From IMG/VR virus record IMGVR_UViG_3300038829_000114: a stretch of DNA of 64,000 nt; one strand, given 5' to 3'. Below the pieces are notes generated by a model that was given only the letters and a program-made list of their open reading frames with translations, did no database searches and was not told where the DNA came from. The stretch is from a virus (taxonomy: Duplodnaviria; Heunggongvirae; Uroviricota; Caudoviricetes). How positions within the stretch are numbered: the stretch's first letter is position 1; every line of letters begins with the position of its first letter. A program made the translations under genes and the position numbers. Below, one piece after another: positions 38,772 to 55,862 of the stretch.

Positions 38772-39701
38772 ATGTGGGACAACATTCGTAGAATTAATTC
38801 GTCTGATAAAAATGTAGCAAAGTTTGTTTTTGAGATGGGTACTGCTGTGGCGGAATCAGTGCTATACAAATACCCTACCTATGAAGATCGAACGGTTATT
38901 TGTTGCTCAACAATGAGTGGTTGTCCAATTGGTTGTCGCTTTTGTGGTGCAGGTGATAACTTTGTTCGATCATTAAATGCCGATGAGATTATATCGCAGC
39001 CAGTATACTTGCTAGATCAAACAGGTGTTGACCCAAACGCTATGACGCGGCTACAGATTATGTTTATGTCTATGGGTGAACCTATGCTTAATCTAAAGCA
39101 CCTTATCCCGGCGCTGGAGACACTGTATGCCAAATATCCAAAGGCAGCATTGCTTGTATCCACATCTGGTCCTGATATTGATTACAGCGATTTTAATGAG
39201 GTATCTAAAGCCATCCCAACAATCGGTCTACAATTCTCTGTGCATGAATCTACAGATGAAGCTAGAGATAAGTTGATCCCGTTTAGTAAGAAGCTGTCTT
39301 TGACACAAATTTCTACTGTAGGCAAGGATTGGTATAAAGCTACTGGCCGTCAACCGTTCTTTAACTATTGCGTACATGAAAACAACAATACATATGCAGA
39401 TGTAAACCGATTGTCTCATTTGTTTGACCCGTCTGTTTGGCAAGCTACAATATCTGTGATTTGTGAGCGTAACGAATCCATTGCTGCCGCGAACGAACGC
39501 CAGCGGGGGCTTGCCTCTGACTTTATGAGTAAGATGTTAAATAATAACTACTCTGTTCGTATGTTTGATCCTGCTGGACAAGATGATATTGGCGGCGGCT
39601 GCGGGCAGCTTTGGTTTGTGCAAGACTGGATGAAGAAAAATCCACACTTGGCCAAGCCATCTGTCGGTTATGGATTGCCGATGGTACATACCCCGGCGTA
39701 A
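38772..39701 (+). CDS. RlmN/Cfr-family radical-SAM RNA methyltransferase-like protein
   Basis: CX3CX2C (CPIGCRFC). Also MSMGEPMLN, STSG, S(V)HESTDEARDKLIP and the C-terminal GGGCGQL conserved-Cys motif, colinear with RlmN. Confidence 0.7.
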   Translation: MWDNIRRINSSDKNVAKFVFEMGTAVAESVLYKYPTYEDRTVICCSTMSGCPIGCRFCGAGDNFVRSLNADEIISQPVYLLDQTGVDPNAMTRLQIMFMSMGEPMLNLKHLIPALETLYAKYPKAALLVSTSGPDIDYSDFNEVSKAIPTIGLQFSVHESTDEARDKLIPFSKKLSLTQISTVGKDWYKATGRQPFFNYCVHENNNTYADVNRLSHLFDPSVWQATISVICERNESIAAANERQRGLASDFMSKMLNNNYSVRMFDPAGQDDIGGGCGQLWFVQDWMKKNPHLAKPSVGYGLPMVHTPA

Positions 39702-45252: not shown

Positions 45253-46332
45253 ATGGAAACTGCATTACAAAAAGCACTGCGCTCTGGGGAAACTCCAGAA
45301 CAACTAAAAGAACGACTTGGGGTCGGATTCTATGTTCATCCCTCTTTGCCTTTAGTTGGATTTAAATATTCACAGATTGATAGTCCAAAGGCAGACCCAG
45401 TGGTTTTAGCCTCTCGTGGTACTGTGCTCGAAAAAGATACTTGGAATTTAGTTGCACAACCTTTTTTCAGATTCTTCAATTATGGTGAGCAGGAGACTGA
45501 TAAAAAGTTTGTTTTTCCAGGCTCATCTGCGTTTGCGAAAGAAGACGGCTCTTTAATGATCGTCTATAATTATAATGAAAACTGGCATGTTAATACGTCT
45601 GGTTCTTTCGGTATTCAAGAATGTGGGTTCTCAGGTAAAACTTGGGGCCAGTTATTCTGGGAGACCTCAAAACTGGATAAATCTAAACTAGACCCAAAGA
45701 ATACCTATATCTTTGAACTATGCACTGTTTGGAACAAGATCGTCCGTATGTACCCAGAACCTAAAACTCCTTTAACCGGGGTCATAGAGACGGCTACGTT
45801 ACATGACTATCCAAATCCTTGGGTAAAAGCTGTTGGGGAAGAGTTAGGTGTTGGGTATCCAGCACTAGTATATTTTTCCTCAATACAAGAGGTCCACGAC
45901 TGCTTAACCCAAACTTCAGCTAAAGACCCTACTTTTGAAGGTTTGGTATTGCGGGATATGAATGGGCTTCGAGTTAAGATCAAGACGGATACTTATTTAG
46001 CTCTACACCACATGGCAGATAATGGTAATTTAGGTAATCCTAAATATATTGTTAAGTATCTCCTAAAAGGTGAGAAGGATGAGATTATTACATACTTTCC
46101 TGAGCTAAAAGCTAAGATAGAGGATGTAGAAGCCACTTTAAACACTCATAAACAGGCTTTATTAGCGCTTTGGGAAGAAACTAAGGGTATCGTGGCCCAG
46201 AAGGACTTTGCCCTTGCTATTGTTGGAAATACGCCTTTTACGGGCATTCTGTTTAATGCACGTAAGACAGGTGCCGATCCTGCTAAGATTTGGCACGAGT
46301 CAGATGAATTGATTGTTAAAGTTTTGTACTAA
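45253..46332 (+). CDS. RNA ligase 1 (T4 RnlA-like) family nucleotidyltransferase
   Basis: Motif I FAKEDGSL (KxDG, identical to the T4 Rnl1 TKEDGSL), motif IV EGLVLR, motif V RVKIKT. Confidence 0.65.
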   Translation: METALQKALRSGETPEQLKERLGVGFYVHPSLPLVGFKYSQIDSPKADPVVLASRGTVLEKDTWNLVAQPFFRFFNYGEQETDKKFVFPGSSAFAKEDGSLMIVYNYNENWHVNTSGSFGIQECGFSGKTWGQLFWETSKLDKSKLDPKNTYIFELCTVWNKIVRMYPEPKTPLTGVIETATLHDYPNPWVKAVGEELGVGYPALVYFSSIQEVHDCLTQTSAKDPTFEGLVLRDMNGLRVKIKTDTYLALHHMADNGNLGNPKYIVKYLLKGEKDEIITYFPELKAKIEDVEATLNTHKQALLALWEETKGIVAQKDFALAIVGNTPFTGILFNARKTGADPAKIWHESDELIVKVLY

Positions 46333-46919: not shown

Positions 46920-47123
46920 ATGACACTCCCAAAAGTATATGTTTTTATCGGGGCTGACGGATACGTGCTGTCGGTCAGTAGTGACAAACCCGTTGAGGTT
47001 ATTCAAGTTGACTACTCGCCAATGGCTACTCTTGACAAGCATGCTACACTAAAGCTTGAACAAGAAATGCGAAAAAATACAGTGTTTACAAAATCGTTTT
47101 ACGGAGATACTAAAAATGTCTGA
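46920..47123 (+). CDS. hypothetical protein
   Basis: ORF. Confidence 0.45.
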   Translation: MTLPKVYVFIGADGYVLSVSSDKPVEVIQVDYSPMATLDKHATLKLEQEMRKNTVFTKSFYGDTKNV

Positions 47124-48159
47124 ATGGAAAGTTAGCGTTGAAGCTATTGAAATATTTGACCACCCCAATGCAGACCGCATGCAAATTGGGAAAGTTGGTA
47201 CTTATCAGGTAGTTGTGCAGAAAAACTTGTACAAGACTGGGGATATTGTTGCGTTTGCGCCGGAAAAGTCTATTCTTCCACAATCTTTGAAAGAGCCTTG
47301 GGAAAAATACCTTACCGGCACTAACAAAGATCGGGTCAAGGGAGTGCGCTTACGTGGGGAATTTTCGTGTGGTATTATCATCCCGTTGACTACTGTCCAA
47401 GAAAAACTTGGCTATGTTCCTGAAGTCGGCGTAGACATTTCAGAAAAACTCTCAATCCGTAAATTTGAGCCACCTGTCCCTGTCGCTTTAATGGGCAGCG
47501 TTCAGAAGTTTCCAGAGTTTATCAACAACACTTTGGCCGGTGCTCATGACTGTGAACACTTTAGAACATATGTAAACGAGTTTGTTGCCGGTGAACGTGT
47601 AATAGTACAAGAAAAATTGCATGGTAGCCAGTTAATTTGTACTGCCGATGCCGGGGGTAATAACCCAACAATAACGTCTAAAGGTTTGCGTAAAGACGAT
47701 CTTTGTATTAAAGAGAGCGAAGCCAACTCTTACTGGCAAGCTTTCCATAACTGCAAACTACAAGATGTGCTGTTCGAGGCGGCTTTAACACACTCCCCGA
47801 CTAAAGTTATACGAGTGTTTGGTGAATTGGTGCCTTGCCAAAAGGGTTATGCCTATGGCTTGACAAAACCTGAAGTTCGTATTTTTGACATCCGGGTTGA
47901 TGGGCAATCTATTCCGTATGACCAAGCTCCGCCAAGCGCAAAGAAAATCTGGGTTCCATTGCTCTATGACGGGCCTTTTGAAGAAGTTAAGATACTGCCT
48001 CTTTGTGAGGGTAACGAGCAGGTCTCTGGCAAAGAATACCATATCCGTGAGGGCTGTGTTGTTTCTCCATATATAGACAGGTATGCTAAGGACCGAACAC
48101 GCCTGCGTTTGAAGGTTATTAATCCTAAGTACAAGGATGAAGACGATGCGTTCAACTAA
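47116..48159 (+). CDS. Rnl2-family (KxHG) RNA ligase-like nucleotidyltransferase with an N-terminal extra domain
   Basis: Motif I QEKLHGSQ (T4 Rnl2 has EKIHGTN), motif IV REGCVV, motif V LKVINPKYK. ATG 47116 overlaps the previous stop. Confidence 0.6.
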   Translation: MSEWKVSVEAIEIFDHPNADRMQIGKVGTYQVVVQKNLYKTGDIVAFAPEKSILPQSLKEPWEKYLTGTNKDRVKGVRLRGEFSCGIIIPLTTVQEKLGYVPEVGVDISEKLSIRKFEPPVPVALMGSVQKFPEFINNTLAGAHDCEHFRTYVNEFVAGERVIVQEKLHGSQLICTADAGGNNPTITSKGLRKDDLCIKESEANSYWQAFHNCKLQDVLFEAALTHSPTKVIRVFGELVPCQKGYAYGLTKPEVRIFDIRVDGQSIPYDQAPPSAKKIWVPLLYDGPFEEVKILPLCEGNEQVSGKEYHIREGCVVSPYIDRYAKDRTRLRLKVINPKYKDEDDAFN

Positions 48160-49254: not shown

Positions 49255-50898
49255 ATGCCTAGCGAATCAAGAACTCTACAAACAAAGATTAACGGAGTAC
49301 AGATTTACAAGTCTTCGTTCAATCCAAAAACTGGAATGATCGTCAGAGAAACTGTTGAAGGTCTTGATGACTTTGACATGACTCTTACACGATATGTTGG
49401 CTGGAAAAGCGGGGAGTTAGCCCCAACATTTGAACGTGGTGAGTATTTTTGGAATTACGATAAAGACAGAGAGTTTGGAACCAAGGCTTTTCAAGGTTTT
49501 TCGAGATCGAGAACAGAGAAAGCGTTTTCTGTGGTGCCTGAGACTGTAGATATTAAGATCACAGAATGGTGCGATTTTGGTTGTTCTTACTGCTACATGG
49601 ATAGTACAACTACAGCCAAAAAGACAGACGCTATCACACTTGTAAAAAATATTGTGAAAGGCTTCGACCATGCCCCGTATCAATTTGCGTTCGGTGGGGG
49701 CGAACCTTGTTCGTACAAAGACCTCCCAAAGCTTTTGAAAGTAACACGGGAGCTTGGGGTTGTACCTAATTTTACAACCGCTGGTCATATTTTTCGAGAA
49801 GATGTGATTAAAGCTGCAAACAAATATTGTGGCGGCGTTGCTTTAACATACCACCGTTTTAAGGGAGTTGACTTTTTCAAGGAAACGTATGCTAAATGGC
49901 GTGGCGCTCTTAATATCCAAATGAATATTCATGTTATCGCTGATGATGATGTTATTAAGTCGCTGTCTGAGTTAGAGACTATTCAGGCCGAGCTTGGTGG
50001 TACATTTAATATTGTTTTGTTGGCTTACTATCCAAACGTTGGTCGTGCTGATTATAGCCGCGTTATGGATAAGAAAGTTTTTAACGATACCTTACCATCT
50101 GTTATTCGCAAGATGCAACGCAGGCCAGCGGATTTTAGAATTGCTTTTTCTGAGGGCTTACTACCTTATTTCAACTCTCGTGATATTGTGGACATGCAAA
50201 TGGCTACGACACAAGAGGGCAGATTTTCTTGTTATATTGACAACTATGGTCGTATGAGTACCAGTAGCTTTTCAAAGCCTGATATTAAGACACCGACTGT
50301 TTTTGATAAGAGAGCACAAGAGCTTTGGAATAGCCTACAGATGCCGTGGCAGAAACAATCTATCTGTTACGGTTGTCCAAAGTCTTCTAAGTGTAACGCT
50401 CCTGATCTAACACACATGTTGTACTGTGCGTACTCTCCTCTAAACAAAGGTGGAGACCACATTAACGATTACAATCCTTATAATGTTTCAGATCGGCGCA
50501 ACCCAAACAGATTTAACACACAGATTACCGCTATTGGTAGTTTTGTAACGAACTCGTCTTCGGTTATTTGTGCGTTTCCAAAAGAAGTTTTAGACAGCCC
50601 GCAGGTTAGGGCGGTCATTGAAAAATACGGTTTCGATTTGGACCACGTTGGAGATGTTTGGTATCGTGGGTCTTGTGGGTCAATTGCTTCATCTGCGGCT
50701 AAAAAAAGACTCTTAAAAAGTGAGTTGAGTTCGGAAGAATATGGGGAACGTGTTGCTGGCCAAATTGACGTGGACGATGGTAATGTCTATGTTGTGTATG
50801 GCGATGAATATACATCGACAGAGACAATTTTCCTCGATCTTTTAAAAGAAGTTTTGGGCGGAGAGTTGAAATATGTTGTCCATGATGATTTTAACTAA
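49255..50898 (+). CDS. radical-SAM enzyme with SPASM/twitch-like C-terminal Cys cluster (547 aa)
   Basis: CX3CX2C at aa 106-113 (CDFGCSYC), then FAFGGGEP. Late cluster CYGCPKSSKCN…YCAY. RBS ACGGAG. Confidence 0.75.
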   Translation: MPSESRTLQTKINGVQIYKSSFNPKTGMIVRETVEGLDDFDMTLTRYVGWKSGELAPTFERGEYFWNYDKDREFGTKAFQGFSRSRTEKAFSVVPETVDIKITEWCDFGCSYCYMDSTTTAKKTDAITLVKNIVKGFDHAPYQFAFGGGEPCSYKDLPKLLKVTRELGVVPNFTTAGHIFREDVIKAANKYCGGVALTYHRFKGVDFFKETYAKWRGALNIQMNIHVIADDDVIKSLSELETIQAELGGTFNIVLLAYYPNVGRADYSRVMDKKVFNDTLPSVIRKMQRRPADFRIAFSEGLLPYFNSRDIVDMQMATTQEGRFSCYIDNYGRMSTSSFSKPDIKTPTVFDKRAQELWNSLQMPWQKQSICYGCPKSSKCNAPDLTHMLYCAYSPLNKGGDHINDYNPYNVSDRRNPNRFNTQITAIGSFVTNSSSVICAFPKEVLDSPQVRAVIEKYGFDLDHVGDVWYRGSCGSIASSAAKKRLLKSELSSEEYGERVAGQIDVDDGNVYVVYGDEYTSTETIFLDLLKEVLGGELKYVVHDDFN

Positions 50899-51521
50899 TG
50901 ATTAGATTTTTGGGCGAACTTCCGAGAGAATGTTATATTGCCGTGTCTGGTGGTCCTGATAGCATGGCTGTGTTAGATTTCTTGGCGCATGATGGAAAAC
51001 GAGATATTACTGTACTACACGTAAATCACGGAACTGCGTTTGGTAACTTAGAGGGTATGCCGGTAACAGGAAGATACTGTGACAGGAACAGAATTAAGTG
51101 GTCGAACACTTTTATTGATACACAGCCGGAGTCTAATAAAGAAAATTACTGGCGGGAAAAGAGATATGAATTTTTTAATAAGTTTACAGATAAGCCACTA
51201 ATTACATGCCACACGCTTGATGATTGTATTGAGACCTGGTTTTTTGGTGCCTGTCATGGAACACCTAAACTAATCCCATATCGTAGAGGACATATTATTA
51301 GACCGTTCTTAGTGACTCCGAAAAACGAGCTTGTTAGGTGGTGCGATGATCATGGCGTCCCATTTGCTGTTGACCCAAGTAACTCAGACCCGGCCTACAT
51401 GCGGTCGTTAATCCGTACAGAAATGGTACCAACAGTTTTAAAAGTAAACCCTGGTATCAGTAAGGTTATAAAGCGCAAAGTGGAAGAAGACTTTGCAGCT
51501 ACAGAAACGTGTGCTGTTTAA
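50898..51521 (+). CDS. tilS: tRNA(Ile)-lysidine synthetase (TilS) catalytic-domain-like PP-loop ATPase
   Basis: PP-loop SGGPDS. Also VLHVNHG, HTLDDCIETWFF, IIRPFLV…DPSN…Y.R..IR, colinear with the TilS N-terminal domain. ATGA overlap with the rSAM gene. Confidence 0.65.
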   Translation: MIRFLGELPRECYIAVSGGPDSMAVLDFLAHDGKRDITVLHVNHGTAFGNLEGMPVTGRYCDRNRIKWSNTFIDTQPESNKENYWREKRYEFFNKFTDKPLITCHTLDDCIETWFFGACHGTPKLIPYRRGHIIRPFLVTPKNELVRWCDDHGVPFAVDPSNSDPAYMRSLIRTEMVPTVLKVNPGISKVIKRKVEEDFAATETCAV

Positions 51522-51993: not shown

Positions 51994-54900
51994 TTAGTAA
52001 ACAACGGTCTCTTTACCGAAAAGAAGTTCGTATATATCTTCTGGAATCTGGCGTTTGTATTTACGGGCAATTTTCATAGCCAACACACCCTGTTTAGGAG
52101 TAAGTTGTTGGAGCAAGCCAAGTTTTTTACCAATGTCTGCATCTAATTTATTAAAACCCATTCCATCTAACTCCCTAGCTCCGTCGCAGTATCCAGCAAG
52201 CAGTCGAATAGCAATATGAGCAGCTTTCAATTGGGCATCAGTAATCTTAACAGCCTCTTCTTCAAGCTCTTTGCGATCTAACTTGATTGGTTCTGGAACA
52301 GGAATGATAGGCTGTGATCGGGTAGTCTCTAAGTCTTCATCAAGAGCTTTGTCAATAATCTCTTGTTTTTCAATAATAGTCTTAGCCATGGTTGCGTCAA
52401 TAGAGCCTTCCAAAACCAAGTGTTGAACTAATACTGGGGTCATTTTTGTAACGTGACGAACGCGATCCTCTGCTTGAGAAACGTTGCCTGGAACCCAATC
52501 TTCTTCAATCATTAGAATATGGCTTGATACCGCCAAATTAATACCTACCCCGGCAGCACCAATTGTTCCAATAAACAGGTTGCAAGTAGGATCGTTTTGA
52601 AACCGCTCAATCTCTTCCTGACGCTTGGTTACAGGAGTATCTCCAGTAATTACAGCAGCATTAGGAAACTCAGCCCGAATAATAGAGACTACCTCTTTGT
52701 GGTGAGCAAACACAACAAGTTTATAATTAGGGTCGTTGTCATCAAAAATATCTGAGATATAGTCAACAACCAGCGGAGCCTTGGCGATAGCTGTCTCTCT
52801 ACGAACTGCCGAGATTTCTTCAAAAGACAGCTTAACACCATCTTGTAAAGATTTTACAGCATTTGCATATTCAGTTGGATCATCTGACACCTTGGCTAAT
52901 TCAACAGCAGCTTTAAGAGAGTCTAAACGTTCTGTATATTGAGACTCTTTTTTAAGAGCTTTTAGGCATGTTTTATCAGCAGGTATTTCGATAACCTGAC
53001 GCTGCTTGAGAGGCATTTCTGGGAACACTTCTTCAAATGTACGCCGGATCATAATAGAGGCGCGGAGTTTTGTTTGAAGCTCATCTAGGTTTGAAGCACC
53101 GTCATAATGATGGCCATATTGATCTGTATAGCCATTGCAGTAGCGTTTACTGAAATAGTAGAAAGATTTCCAGGTATTTGAATCAAGCGAATTGACCAAC
53201 GTCCACAATTCTTTCGGACGGTTTACAATAGGCGTACCTGTCATGTAAATCTTTTTCTTGGCTGGAATAGGTTTGATTTCCCATTCATATGTTTTTGGGG
53301 CCAACTTACCCAAAATATTCTGGGTTCTTTTTGTTTTATAATTTTTACAGTTAGAAACCAACACCCCGTTGGCAAAATAATTATTATTATCCGCTATCTC
53401 TATGTTGTAAACAAATTTATTTTCTCCACCACTAATTCTAAATTTTCCAATACTTCCTTGTTCTTGAATCGAACAACTCTCCACCCTAGAAAATTTAGTA
53501 TAGACTCTTTCCGTTTGTCCAGAAATCTCCACTTTTTTGTGTCGTGGCTTCTTCCATCTATCTCTACTGCTAACATTTTCTCTGGAATTCCTATATCTAC
53601 TTTGTAGCAGTGAGGAAGACTTGGAAATTTTCCTTTTGCTGGAGACGTTTGAATTATATACTCTGTGTTTTCCATTAAATTTAGCTTTTCCGCTAAAAGT
53701 TTTTGAGGAACCGTAAGCTGGCCGTTCCCACCGCGACTTAAAAAGGTTCTCCCTACCATTTTCTTCCGCATTTTTTCTACTGATTCTGGGTTCGACATTG
53801 GGTTGTTTTTTTTCATTCTTTCCGATGATTTTGGGTTTGGCTTTCCTGTAATAGCTGCCACCGCTTTTTTTATAGCTTTTCTCGAATGATCTCGTCGTCC
53901 TGGCAACGTCATCATCCACACACCACGACAATGGTTTGAACAAAATCTTCTTTTGTAAATCCCCTTTGAATAGTGAGGTTTTACTAAAAACTGCTTTTTG
54001 CAGGTTTCGCACTCCAAGCTTATTTTTGGCTTCAAAGTTGCCAACCGTATTTTTTCTCTCACTTCTGGTTGAGAATTCGTCCACTTCGCGGAACATTTTA
54101 GAGAACAAAATCTTCGAGTGTTTTTCCCTAGCTTTTCTGCGGTAAAAATCTTTTGGCAAAAACCACAGGTTTTCTCTATTTTTGATCTTCCGCGCTTCGA
54201 CATAATCTTGCCTTGTTAGTGAATAAATTTTATGGTTAGATGTACAACCAAATTCCCCATACTTATGTTTTACAGACACTAAATCTTCGTACAAAGGATT
54301 AGAAAATCTGGTTAGTATATCTTTATATTCAAGACAATTTTTATTATGATTAAAGGATAACACTTTTAAGCTGAGATTTTTTGTTACAATATCCCCTATT
54401 TTTTTTGTACCCTTATCAGTATAGACTTCAGTATCATATGGAAAACAATAATGGGCTTCGTCTAGGATTAACAAATCCCAATCTATGCCATCAATTATAG
54501 TCTTATGTCTGGACACTAAATCATAATTTATAATGACAATATCAGTATCTGGGAAGGTGTCCCCCGTGACTACACCTATATTTCGTTTTGTAACTAACCA
54601 TTTGTTGGCTTCGTTTCTCCAATTGAGCTTCACAGTTGCTGGGCAAATTATAAGAATTTTACGAATGGTTTGTACGTTGTTGATAATACCAAGAGCTTGA
54701 ATAGTCTTCCCAAGTCGCATAGCATCAGCTAAGAGAATGTTTGGCTTGGCGATACCAAAAGCAATGCCAGCTTTTTGATAGGGATAGTATTCTAAACCTT
54801 TGGGTCTGATAAAATCTACAGCCGATTCGACGGCTTGGGACATCTCGATAGTTTTATAGAACTCTTCTAAACGCTTTTTTACATCATCAGAAGCATAATT

Positions 54901-55050
54901 AACGAGTTTGTAAGCTCTATCAGCATCGTAGGTGTACCAGTATTTTTGCGCCCCGTCCCACCAGAAATCGGCGGATTTGGGGATATGTTTCTCAGAATAC
55001 TGGGAAACAACATAATAGCGGCGTTTGATATCGTCGTACTTTAATTCCAT
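51994..55050 (-). CDS. SNF2-family DEAH-box helicase interrupted by an in-frame intein (1018-aa precursor; about 652 aa after splicing)
   Basis: GKT Walker A, LILDEAH motif II immediately followed by a Cys; C-terminal helicase motifs (TGTPIVN, FAHH, QAEDRVRHV). Confidence 0.8.
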   Translation of the reverse strand: MELKYDDIKRRYYVVSQYSEKHIPKSADFWWDGAQKYWYTYDADRAYKLVNYASDDVKKRLEEFYKTIEMSQAVESAVDFIRPKGLEYYPYQKAGIAFGIAKPNILLADAMRLGKTIQALGIINNVQTIRKILIICPATVKLNWRNEANKWLVTKRNIGVVTGDTFPDTDIVIINYDLVSRHKTIIDGIDWDLLILDEAHYCFPYDTEVYTDKGTKKIGDIVTKNLSLKVLSFNHNKNCLEYKDILTRFSNPLYEDLVSVKHKYGEFGCTSNHKIYSLTRQDYVEARKIKNRENLWFLPKDFYRRKAREKHSKILFSKMFREVDEFSTRSERKNTVGNFEAKNKLGVRNLQKAVFSKTSLFKGDLQKKILFKPLSWCVDDDVARTTRSFEKSYKKSGGSYYRKAKPKIIGKNEKKQPNVEPRISRKNAEENGRENLFKSRWERPAYGSSKTFSGKAKFNGKHRVYNSNVSSKRKISKSSSLLQSRYRNSRENVSSRDRWKKPRHKKVEISGQTERVYTKFSRVESCSIQEQGSIGKFRISGGENKFVYNIEIADNNNYFANGVLVSNCKNYKTKRTQNILGKLAPKTYEWEIKPIPAKKKIYMTGTPIVNRPKELWTLVNSLDSNTWKSFYYFSKRYCNGYTDQYGHHYDGASNLDELQTKLRASIMIRRTFEEVFPEMPLKQRQVIEIPADKTCLKALKKESQYTERLDSLKAAVELAKVSDDPTEYANAVKSLQDGVKLSFEEISAVRRETAIAKAPLVVDYISDIFDDNDPNYKLVVFAHHKEVVSIIRAEFPNAAVITGDTPVTKRQEEIERFQNDPTCNLFIGTIGAAGVGINLAVSSHILMIEEDWVPGNVSQAEDRVRHVTKMTPVLVQHLVLEGSIDATMAKTIIEKQEIIDKALDEDLETTRSQPIIPVPEPIKLDRKELEEEAVKITDAQLKAAHIAIRLLAGYCDGARELDGMGFNKLDADIGKKLGLLQQLTPKQGVLAMKIARKYKRQIPEDIYELLFGKETVVY
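53350..54447 (-). mobile_element. intein (366 aa) inserted in helicase motif II
   Basis: N-terminal block CFPYDTEV…TSNH (TxxH); C-terminal blocks VYNIEIADNNNYFANGVLVSN followed by the extein Cys. The central 380 codons are open but low-complexity K/R-rich. Confidence 0.65.
53400..54203 (-). mobile_element. homing-endonuclease gene nested inside the intein but in a different reading frame: 2x Zn-ribbon, NUMOD3-like repeats, C-terminal DUF559/Vsr-like PD-(D/E)xK nuclease
   Basis: Own SD (AAGG) 8 nt before the ATG. Motifs RRFCSLKCSAKW / RRFCSNHCRGVW and AVEIDGRSHD…GWRVVRF. Frame offset from the intein confirmed by codon phase (55050 vs 54203). Confidence 0.6.
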
Positions 55051-55451: not shown

Positions 55452-55862
55452 TTAAATAGAGATTATGTCAACCGGCCACTTACGGTCAATAATTTTAATT
55501 GTCTCAGATTCTATACCAAACTCTTTACGAAGAAAACCCATGGCCTCTTTTTCACTAAAATCTTTACAAGAAAAAACATCCATAGAGAATCTGTTTCTTA
55601 AGGGCCAGGTGTGTATGGATATATGAGAGGTCGTTACCATACAGAAGCCTGAAATACCACCGTCATCGGCATCGGTATTTAGCTTGGTAGTGTCTGTTGG
55701 GACGTATAGAAATTGAGGGTAGAGGAGTATTTCCATCTTTAAAATTCCGACTAGTTTAATTAAGATGTCAGACATCTTCGATATGTCGGAAAGTATCTGA
55801 TTGTCTTTTACAAAAGCATCTAATACAATGTGTTTACCGGCAGACAAACCATGTTCGTGCAT
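55452..55862 (-). CDS. S-adenosylmethionine decarboxylase proenzyme (small pyruvoyl-dependent type)
   Basis: TSHISIHTWP with the Ser processing site, GKHIVLD, DVFSC. Confidence 0.65.
   Translation of the reverse strand: MHEHGLSAGKHIVLDAFVKDNQILSDISKMSDILIKLVGILKMEILLYPQFLYVPTDTTKLNTDADDGGISGFCMVTTSHISIHTWPLRNRFSMDVFSCKDFSEKEAMGFLRKEFGIESETIKIIDRKWPVDIISI

Follow-up and report, generated by a model that had tools for sequence, protein, structure and literature searches.

Genes for homing endonucleases of the EDxHD (Vsr-like) family have been known from group I introns, as free-standing genes, from between the halves of split inteins, and in antisense orientation within inteins. The family was first found in fractured genes, in which a free-standing endonuclease gene, either Vsr-like (EDxHD) or GIY-YIG, separates the two parts of a split intein (Dassa et al. 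2009, PMC2677866), and its prototype is I-Bth0305I (Taylor et al. 2011, PMC3239194; PDB 3r3p). Out-of-frame and antisense endonucleases in contiguous inteins have been reported by Gosselin, Arsenault & Gogarten (bioRxiv 10.1101/2025.01.02.630785); their actinophage cases comprise an endonuclease VII-like gene in frame 3 and antisense LAGLIDADG and Vsr-like genes, and the host genes are those of terminase, polymerase, capsid, and ThyX. A cyanobacterial dnaX intein with a +2 LAGLIDADG open reading frame (ORF) was described by Phillips et al. (bioRxiv 10.64898/2026.09.14.751524), and the authors of both preprints regard the architecture as rare and predict that it is under-detected. In ShiLan, a hidden out-of-frame HNH endonuclease lies in an in-frame-open insertion of a phage methylase (Arsenault et al. 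2025, PMC11855218). Here we analyzed a 64,000-nucleotide stretch of DNA (the window) of the tailed-phage record IMGVR_UViG_3300038829_000114, in which an SNF2-family helicase gene carries a predicted intein whose DNA also holds, in the +1 frame, a putative EDxHD homing endonuclease gene. We consider it quite probable that the locus is a composite mobile element whose DNA is read in two frames, as a cis-splicing intein and as a +1 EDxHD endonuclease.

The locus shares with the non-canonical inteins of the two preprints a contiguous intein, an open host frame, an alternative-frame endonuclease between the splicing lobes, and an in-frame translation without a fold. It also shares with them purifying selection on the endonuclease frame and the proposed origin, in which an endonuclease gene of the free-standing kind invades an intein. 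Unlike in those inteins, the endonuclease here is a same-strand +1 EDxHD protein with twin zinc ribbons that keeps a fixed phase in more than 100 loci, and the site is always the Walker-B DE motif of SNF2/DExH helicases, helicase-methylases, or clamp loaders. As in fractured genes, an endonuclease of the same family lies between the intein N and C lobes in phage DNA-metabolism genes, and its 3′ end overlaps the intein-C coding sequence (by 6–69 bp in fractured genes and ~100 bp here). In contrast to fractured genes, in which the host gene stops after Int-N and starts anew ahead of Int-C, giving two ORFs that must trans-splice, the host gene here is contiguous and cis-splicing is predicted. Like I-Bth0305I, the encoded protein (~266 aa in that case) has a Vsr-fold nuclease with E/D/H/D residues, preceded by an N-terminal region that is putatively DNA-binding here, and is housed in a self-splicing element (a predicted one here) of a phage DNA-metabolism gene; however, I-Bth0305I resides in a group I intron (recA) without overlap with protein-coding sequence, and its N-terminal region has NUMOD2/helix-turn-helix motifs instead of CxxC...CSxxC zinc ribbons. 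ShiLan likewise has an alternative-frame endonuclease ORF, overlooked by annotation, in an insertion without host-frame stops, but its insert has no splicing domains and stays in the protein, and its endonuclease is HNH, whereas Hint N and C lobes, predicted excision, and an EDxHD enzyme are found here. Canonical bifunctional inteins (in-frame LAGLIDADG/HNH) also interrupt Hint at the standard position and sit in the catalytic motif of a replication/repair ATPase, but their endonuclease is a domain of the same polypeptide and not the separate product of another frame.

In the window, the endonuclease domain is not in the same frame as the Hint lobes, which would mark a canonical bifunctional intein, and the host gene is not split into two ORFs as a fractured gene would be, its frame having 0 stops across the whole intein. 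What is present is a contiguous open host frame with a complete alternative-frame endonuclease ORF between the splicing lobes, the mark of a non-canonical intein. A full-text literature search, whose incomplete coverage leaves an earlier description possible, returned no description of same-strand +1 EDxHD genes in contiguous inteins at the Walker-B motif of helicases or clamp loaders. The features of the locus are as follows (AF2, AlphaFold2; pLDDT, predicted local distance difference test).

51994..55050, − strand: SNF2-family helicase precursor ORF, 1018 aa with the intein included (ORF call; Pfam)
54448..55050, − strand: N-extein, aa 1-201, ending in Walker-B/motif II ...LILDEAHY (AF2 pLDDT 85-94)
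53350..54447, − strand: predicted class-1 intein, 366 aa, C202...VLVSN567, read in the helicase frame (TIGR01445 and TIGR01443; intein-less orthologues)
54160..54447, − strand: Hint N-terminal splicing lobe, aa 202-297 (TIGR01445 at aa 202-276; AF2 beta strands 208-297, pLDDT 56-81)
53497..54159, − strand: helicase-frame spacer, aa 298-518, K/S/R-rich and stop-free (no confident fold)
53350..53496, − strand: Hint C-terminal splicing lobe, aa 519-567, with blocks F/G ...VYNIEIADNNNYFANGVLVSN (TIGR01443; AF2 strands 519-530 and 546-552)
51994..53349, − strand: C-extein, aa 568-1018 plus stop, starting CKNYKTKRTQ (Helicase_C at aa 763-864)
53400..54203, − strand: predicted nested homing-endonuclease gene, 267 aa, +1 frame relative to the helicase and intein (DUF559; AF2; homologues)
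54093..54167, − strand: zinc ribbon 1, C13-x2-C16 ... C33-S-x2-C37 (alignment; AF2 beta hairpin 8-23)
53928..54011, − strand: zinc ribbon 2, C65-x2-C68 ... C88-S-x2-C92 (invariant cysteines)
53403..53711, − strand: predicted EDxHD/Vsr-fold nuclease domain, aa 165-267, with E214, D216, H220, and D229
54211..54214, − strand: weak Shine-Dalgarno-like AAGG, 7-nt spacer to the nested ATG (54201-54203)

An earlier note, made from the letters of this DNA alone, had proposed both ORFs at these positions, with the smaller one in another frame, and a 366-aa intein directly after the DEAH box with Hint blocks at both ends; our analysis reproduced the ORFs and the intein boundaries (C202..N567) exactly and placed the smaller ORF in the +1 frame. 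The helicase ORF matched SNF2-rel_dom (6.9e-29) and Helicase_C of Pfam. The intein lies between Tyr201 and Cys568, directly after DEAHY of motif II, with Cys568 as the +1 residue. Two NCBIfam models scored above their cut-offs: TIGR01445 (intein N-term) at aa 202-276, beginning with Cys202 (33.3 bits vs. 24.5), and TIGR01443 (intein C-term) at aa 546-568 (24.0 bits vs. 15.6). Pfam Intein_splicing matched aa 212-567 at a sub-threshold 25.8 bits. The block B TxxH is present as T270-S-N-H273 in ...GCTSNHKIY, and the C-terminal end reads ...VLVSN567|C568, a terminal Asn followed by a Cys extein residue. The comparison with homologous helicases that the earlier note had suggested revealed that most orthologues of the window helicase (40–48% identity) are ~650 aa long and lack an intein, and no relatives with an empty mini-intein were found. 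The intein-less orthologues run DEAHY[A/I/L]KNxKAQRT uninterrupted over the site, where the window has DEAHY|intein|CKNYKTKRTQ (insertion motif at 54445-54462), and their insertion-site DNA (e.g., in P0092-P0094) is GAYGARGCNCAYTAY|NNNAARAAY. Since these orthologues are colinear with the window helicase, they define the insertion point and show that the intein is sporadically distributed. The splicing motifs, curated models, and colinear orthologues indicate that the element is a class-1 intein, and we infer that the precursor undergoes autocatalytic protein splicing.

Between the lobes, the earlier note had seen a low-complexity, foldless centre of ~380 codons. The composition (K36, S28, and R24 of 220 residues) and the lack of fold held, while the size had to be reduced to ~220 codons. 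In the AF2 model of the whole precursor, the exteins had pLDDT values of 85-95 and Hint-N (aa 208-297) 56-81, compared with ~30 for aa 299-518, and no protein family matched the spacer in the helicase frame.

The protein of the nested ORF matched DUF559 of Pfam (E=1.3e-11), as expected from the DUF559/Vsr-like nuclease that had been proposed for it. It had 90 homologues at 32–61% identity in the protein collection and 816 related protein clusters at E<=1e-30. Both zinc ribbons that had been claimed were found in the alignments: Cys13, 16, 33, and 37 of ribbon 1 are each kept in at least 90% of 27 homologues, the cysteines of ribbon 2 are invariant, and a zf-FCS match at aa 65-93 scored 20.7 bits, just under its cut-off of 22.4. 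On the other hand, the NUMOD3-like repeats that had also been claimed received no Pfam support; NUMOD families gave zero Pfam matches in the nested protein, whose N-terminal part consists of the two CxxC...CSxxC ribbons. In the nuclease domain, E214, D216, G217, and H220 are invariant and D229 is kept in at least 90% of sequences (27- and 46-sequence alignments); a SERMKxNNPM helix motif and a GGNG segment are also conserved. A PDB sequence search gave only marginal matches, including a weak one to 3hrl, and a fold comparison was therefore needed. The AF2 model built from the 46-sequence alignment had a mean pLDDT of 91.1, and its top PDB match in Foldseek was 3r3p_B, the catalytic domain of I-Bth0305I (probability 1.00, template modelling score normalized to the target 0.64, E=2.5e-3), with 23% identity over the nuclease domain. 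The equivalence of the E/D/H/D residues to those of I-Bth0305I is by motif and fold, not by residue-level superposition. These results indicate that the nested ORF encodes an EDxHD (I-Bth0305I/Vsr-fold) homing endonuclease, in which a helical linker lies between two zinc ribbons and the Vsr-fold nuclease. Its cleavage specificity and active homing are presumed, and the scattered occurrence of the intein among intein-less orthologues is an indirect pointer to homing.

The AF2 values (~91 in one frame and ~30 in the other) thus predict a confident nuclease and an unstructured linker from the same DNA. Where the nested ORF begins, it shares ~15 codons with the Hint-coding sequence, and where it ends, ~32; its stop codon falls within intein block F. 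Over the 267 nested codons, the helicase frame of the window contains 0 stops, far from chance as the earlier note had asserted, although the number expected from codon-order shuffles is 19.0 and not the ~12 given there; none of 20,000 shuffles left this frame stop-free. In the third frame, stops number 29, against 25 expected. A host-frame stop requires a T-ending endonuclease codon followed by a codon starting with AA, AG, or GA, so avoidance of stops should be visible as avoidance of T at these places. Indeed, 0 of 92 endonuclease codons before AA/AG/GA codons end in T, compared with 55 of 174 elsewhere (Fisher p=3e-12). The same holds for 75 unique related loci, each with 0 host-frame stops vs. 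15.6 expected per locus and 22.6 third-frame stops on average; T-ending codons number 0/5931 before AA/AG/GA and 3660/12790 elsewhere. Chance is excluded as the cause of the stop-free helicase frame, and this frame is held open by selection. The cost to the endonuclease is a synonymous restriction only, i.e., no T-ending codon before AA/AG/GA.

Because a metagenome scan for close relatives of the window allele gave two distant loci only, the phase of substitutions across the family was used instead of lineage-specific dN/dS. Substitutions among the related loci at endonuclease codon positions 1:2:3 numbered 3325:2456:6001, and the host-frame wobble position was the least variable site class. 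This pattern shows, for the family of related loci to which the test applies and not for the window's own lineage, protein-level (purifying) selection in the +1 endonuclease frame only, with the host frame apparently relaxed in the overlap. The claim that an endonuclease gene of free-standing type occupies the other frame while the intein frame is kept open is thus borne out by stop avoidance, by the frame that folds, and by the substitution phase.

The layout is found in cultured phages. A tblastn search of GenBank phages with the nested protein matched 41 records. Those listed number 30 and come from Vibrio phages and Pseudomonas phage MR14; in each, the match lies within a single annotated host coding sequence (CDS), which bears the name helicase in several cases and a generic one in the rest. 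In Vibrio phages CP-T1 and 1.088.O and in Pseudomonas phage MR14, an open helicase ORF contains an intein with the junctions DE|C...HN|CHH and, in its +1 frame, a complete ORF for a 241–261-aa homologue; the stop-avoidance statistics hold likewise. A scan of IMG/VR gave 316 relatives and 80 retained loci; in 80/80, the endonuclease is in the +1 frame of a zero-stop host ORF (host open stretches of 489 to >2900 codons; 8–42 stops in the third frame). In bacterial genomes, 22 of 27 loci are nested likewise, including those of the isolates Longilinea arvoryzae KOME-1 and Azospirillum canadense DS2. The host-frame flanks show Hint ends at all related loci, and the Hint C-terminal lobe is kept in every one. 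Host proteins are SNF2 helicases, ResIII/DEAD helicases, helicase-N6/N4-methylase fusions, ~2900-aa helicases, and DnaX-like clamp loaders. The architecture is widespread and conserved and appears to be old, with endonuclease relatives down to ~30% identity keeping the same phase. The 'rare snapshot' of invasion suggested by the earlier note did not survive this survey: the layout is phase-locked in more than 100 loci over an identity range reaching ~30%, and the general phenomenon had been reported before for other nuclease families.

The insertion registers were determined from 74 delimited inteins (L001-L087; 278–440 aa long): 57 follow DE directly, 10 follow DE plus two residues (DEAH), and 7, including those of the window and L009, follow DE plus three (DEAHY). 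These three registers suggest that the insertion site moved repeatedly by small steps or that ectopic homing took place from the Walker-B motif of one ATPase to that of another, unrelated one. The identities of the endonuclease and of Hint-N (first 80 non-overlapping residues) are correlated across loci (Mantel r=0.51, p=5e-4), which fits the intein and endonuclease moving as one unit.

Exceptions to nesting are the free-standing genes at L004/L005, L006, L107, L110, and L119. The endonuclease genes of L004 (4001-4948), L005, and L006 (4001-4837), whose products are 42–45% identical to the nested endonuclease, lie directly downstream of intein-less SNF2 helicase genes with DEAHY, and these copies look like a free-standing, intronless-homing-type state beside the same kind of target. 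The copy at L119 (3501-4433) adjoins a DNA_pol_B_exo2 gene on a plasmid-like contig with a relaxase and NikA/MobC; thus, the endonuclease family is not confined to phages. Two loci fall in no clean class, L106 with two host-frame stops and L007 with a frame switch on a short contig. In L007 (204-1921 of a 2-kb metagenomic contig), the two halves of the endonuclease are in different frames; the C-terminal half shares the frame of Hint-N, to which it is fused, and Hint-C with the SNF2 part begins in an overlapping ORF of its own. The arrangement reflects either a genuine allele, fractured or decaying, or one indel in the assembly. The 'free-standing' gene calls at L117 and L118 were rejected, both being nested copies whose host gene was mis-split by the gene caller. 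At L117 1322-5680 and L118 2873-5143, the endonuclease had been called as a stand-alone gene and the helicase split or dropped, while the host frame is open for 1453 and 757 codons, respectively.

Three shorter homologues, P0155, P0188, and P0195, were considered as empty mini-inteins and rejected, since they are N-terminally truncated proteins with full-size 355–412-aa inteins of the same type. Other inteins were seen in related proteins. The related SNF2 helicases P0162, P0167, and P0171 carry canonical bifunctional inteins, and P0198/P0199 (1322–1323-aa SNF2 helicases) have a LAGLIDADG-type intein upstream of the intein with the nested endonuclease. Just ahead of its Walker-B intein, the clamp-loader-like ORF L066 1876-5481 has an apparent second one with the end ...THN|T, and a family-A DNA polymerase at L117 7454-7978 has its own intein with an HNH_3 endonuclease domain. 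Because L117 also carries a helicase intein with the nested endonuclease, several intein types coexist in one phage genome.

Some observations weigh against the composite element. The penultimate intein residue is Ser instead of the usual His; VSN|C is nevertheless kept in dozens of relatives. Pairwise substitution counts are phylogenetically non-independent, though the pattern is uniform. The allele of the window was seen only once in the protein collection (P0091, an identical protein on a 107.5-kb JGI metagenome contig), and the scan of metagenome contigs did not recover it. For the nested gene, the earlier note had claimed its own Shine-Dalgarno sequence and ATG; the ATG is there, but the AAGG is weak, and an SD-like motif occurs in only ~40% of related loci. 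A promoter/terminator scan near the nested start in the window gave no promoter-like site just upstream, and RNA folding around it gave no structure above background (z=0.27). As neither a promoter-like site nor RNA structure marks this start, independent initiation remains something that we infer. In its favour, 57 of 75 unique loci have an ATG no more than 12 codons ahead of the first zinc-ribbon Cys (~35% expected), and free-standing homologues of similar size start at the equivalent position. The 150 best-scoring of the 816 related clusters are all at most 434 aa; hence, no in-frame fusion to a long host protein occurs among them. The endonuclease is most likely made as a separate protein from an internal ATG.

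Programmed +1 ribosomal frameshifting from the helicase frame would be another source of the endonuclease, producing either an N-extein-Hint-N-endonuclease fusion or, after a second −1 shift, a canonical intein. The universal same-strand +1 phase, the ~60% of loci without an SD-like motif, and the unmarked nested start would suit it, but the enriched ATG directly ahead of the first zinc ribbon and the equivalent starts of the free-standing homologues would not. The junctions are not conserved in nucleotide sequence, and no common slippery motif was noticed by reading, no systematic search having been made. An open 800-nt host frame would be needless if ribosomes left and re-entered it, and two efficient shifts within one gene are without precedent; frameshifting is very unlikely. 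That sequencing or assembly errors (two compensating indels) conceal an ordinary intein with an in-frame endonuclease domain, the alternative named by the earlier note, is so improbable that we regard it as refuted. The exact window sequence is on a single metagenomic contig, and L007 does have a frame switch inside the endonuclease; yet the same phase and stop-free host frame recur in more than 100 independent loci, most of them metagenomic but including isolate bacteria and cultured phages whose sequences come from different research groups. Moreover, the T-avoidance runs along the full 800 nt, a signature that indels are unable to produce, the nested ORF is bounded by an ATG of its own and a stop codon within block F, and an in-frame version is absent among the 150 best-scoring clusters.

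Another possibility, which we regard as improbable, is that the endonuclease gene or the whole intein is a non-functional relic heading to a mini-intein or pseudogene. Homing-cycle theory expects decay of the endonuclease once it is fixed, Ser replaces the penultimate His of block G, and the majority of orthologous helicases have no intein. However, the invariant zinc-ribbon cysteines and E214/D216/H220/D229 are all intact, the nested protein is modelled with high confidence, and the family-wide substitutions show purifying selection in its frame. The sporadic distribution suits active mobility better than decay, and the apparent short inteins were truncated proteins and not empty relatives. 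It is likewise hardly probable that the spacer itself is a selected domain (e.g., for nucleic-acid binding or control of conditional splicing), giving the DNA a true double function. The spacer is strongly basic, and its hydrophobic content is slightly below that of the other frames (0.215 vs. 0.240). On the other hand, this difference is small, the spacer has no confident structure, and its composition follows automatically from a K/R/E-rich endonuclease read one base earlier; with the wobble position as the least variable class, the host frame shows no codon periodicity.

For the composite element, the following cycle is proposed. Helicase-frame ribosomes would pass through the ~220-codon unstructured basic spacer because it is free of stop codons, after which the Hint lobes would associate and splice out, restoring DEAHY-C-KN and a normal ~652-aa SNF2 helicase. 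The +1 ORF, separately translated from its internal ATG, would yield a free 267-aa EDxHD endonuclease. During co-infection, this enzyme may cut intein-less helicase alleles near the DEAH-box codons, and recombinational repair would copy the intein and endonuclease gene into the cut allele. Nesting beneath the ribosome traffic of the host gene may hold down the production of nuclease. That the phase is always +1 is best accounted for if the element arose once and then spread from one Walker-B site to another. A preference for +1 on account of a more hydrophilic host-frame spacer was considered and rejected, and since the hydrophobicity effect is so small, common ancestry is the simpler explanation of the fixed phase. 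Possibly, +1 encoding was selected for keeping a dimeric nuclease apart from the Hint fold and for throttling its translation. We hold it evenly balanced whether the zinc-ribbon EDxHD clade is, apart from a few free-standing copies, an obligately overprinted gene and thereby an ancient, successful, and largely unannotated intein architecture. If it is, the clade would represent, in nature and in a form open to experiment, an intermediate that links mini-inteins, fractured genes, and canonical inteins, and out-of-frame encoding would be no rare accident of invasion.

For intein evolution, the family provides a large phase-locked natural data set on endonuclease acquisition (more than 100 loci in several host protein families), relevant to the 'splicing first' and fractured-gene models, whereas the earlier out-of-frame cases were a handful and called rare. 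As overlapping genes, ~800 nt are read in two frames, one of them limited to 'no stops', which leaves a simple and quantifiable codon signature. Annotation is also affected: the GenBank records of CP-T1, 1.088.O, and MR14 carry only the host CDS (labelled helicase or otherwise), so the endonuclease is invisible, and on several metagenomic contigs automated gene calling broke up the host gene or obscured the endonuclease. The EDxHD nuclease domain was earlier proposed as a module for engineered nucleases, and inteins that tolerate large spacers at ATPase motifs could interest protein engineers. Experiments are feasible, as the layout also occurs in Vibrio phages that are in culture.

The phage of the window is large and uncultured, and no close relative was found in GenBank; a whole-gene DNA-level search of GenBank phages gave zero matches. 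The gene content around the helicase is typical for a large uncultured phage with RNA-repair functions, and the best matches of the neighbourhood, all weak, are Microcystis and Rhodothermus phages. The following features were noted in the window.

45253-46332 and 47056-48159, + strand: two differing RNA ligases, Rnl1-like and of RNA_ligase/PHA02142 type
38772-39701 and 49255-50898, + strand: two radical-SAM proteins
50898-51521: PP-loop ORF, TilS-like by eye
55452-55862, − strand: S-adenosylmethionine decarboxylase (AdoMetDC)
2714, 15628, and 42487: three tRNAs (tRNA-Met, tRNA-Leu, and tRNA-Arg)

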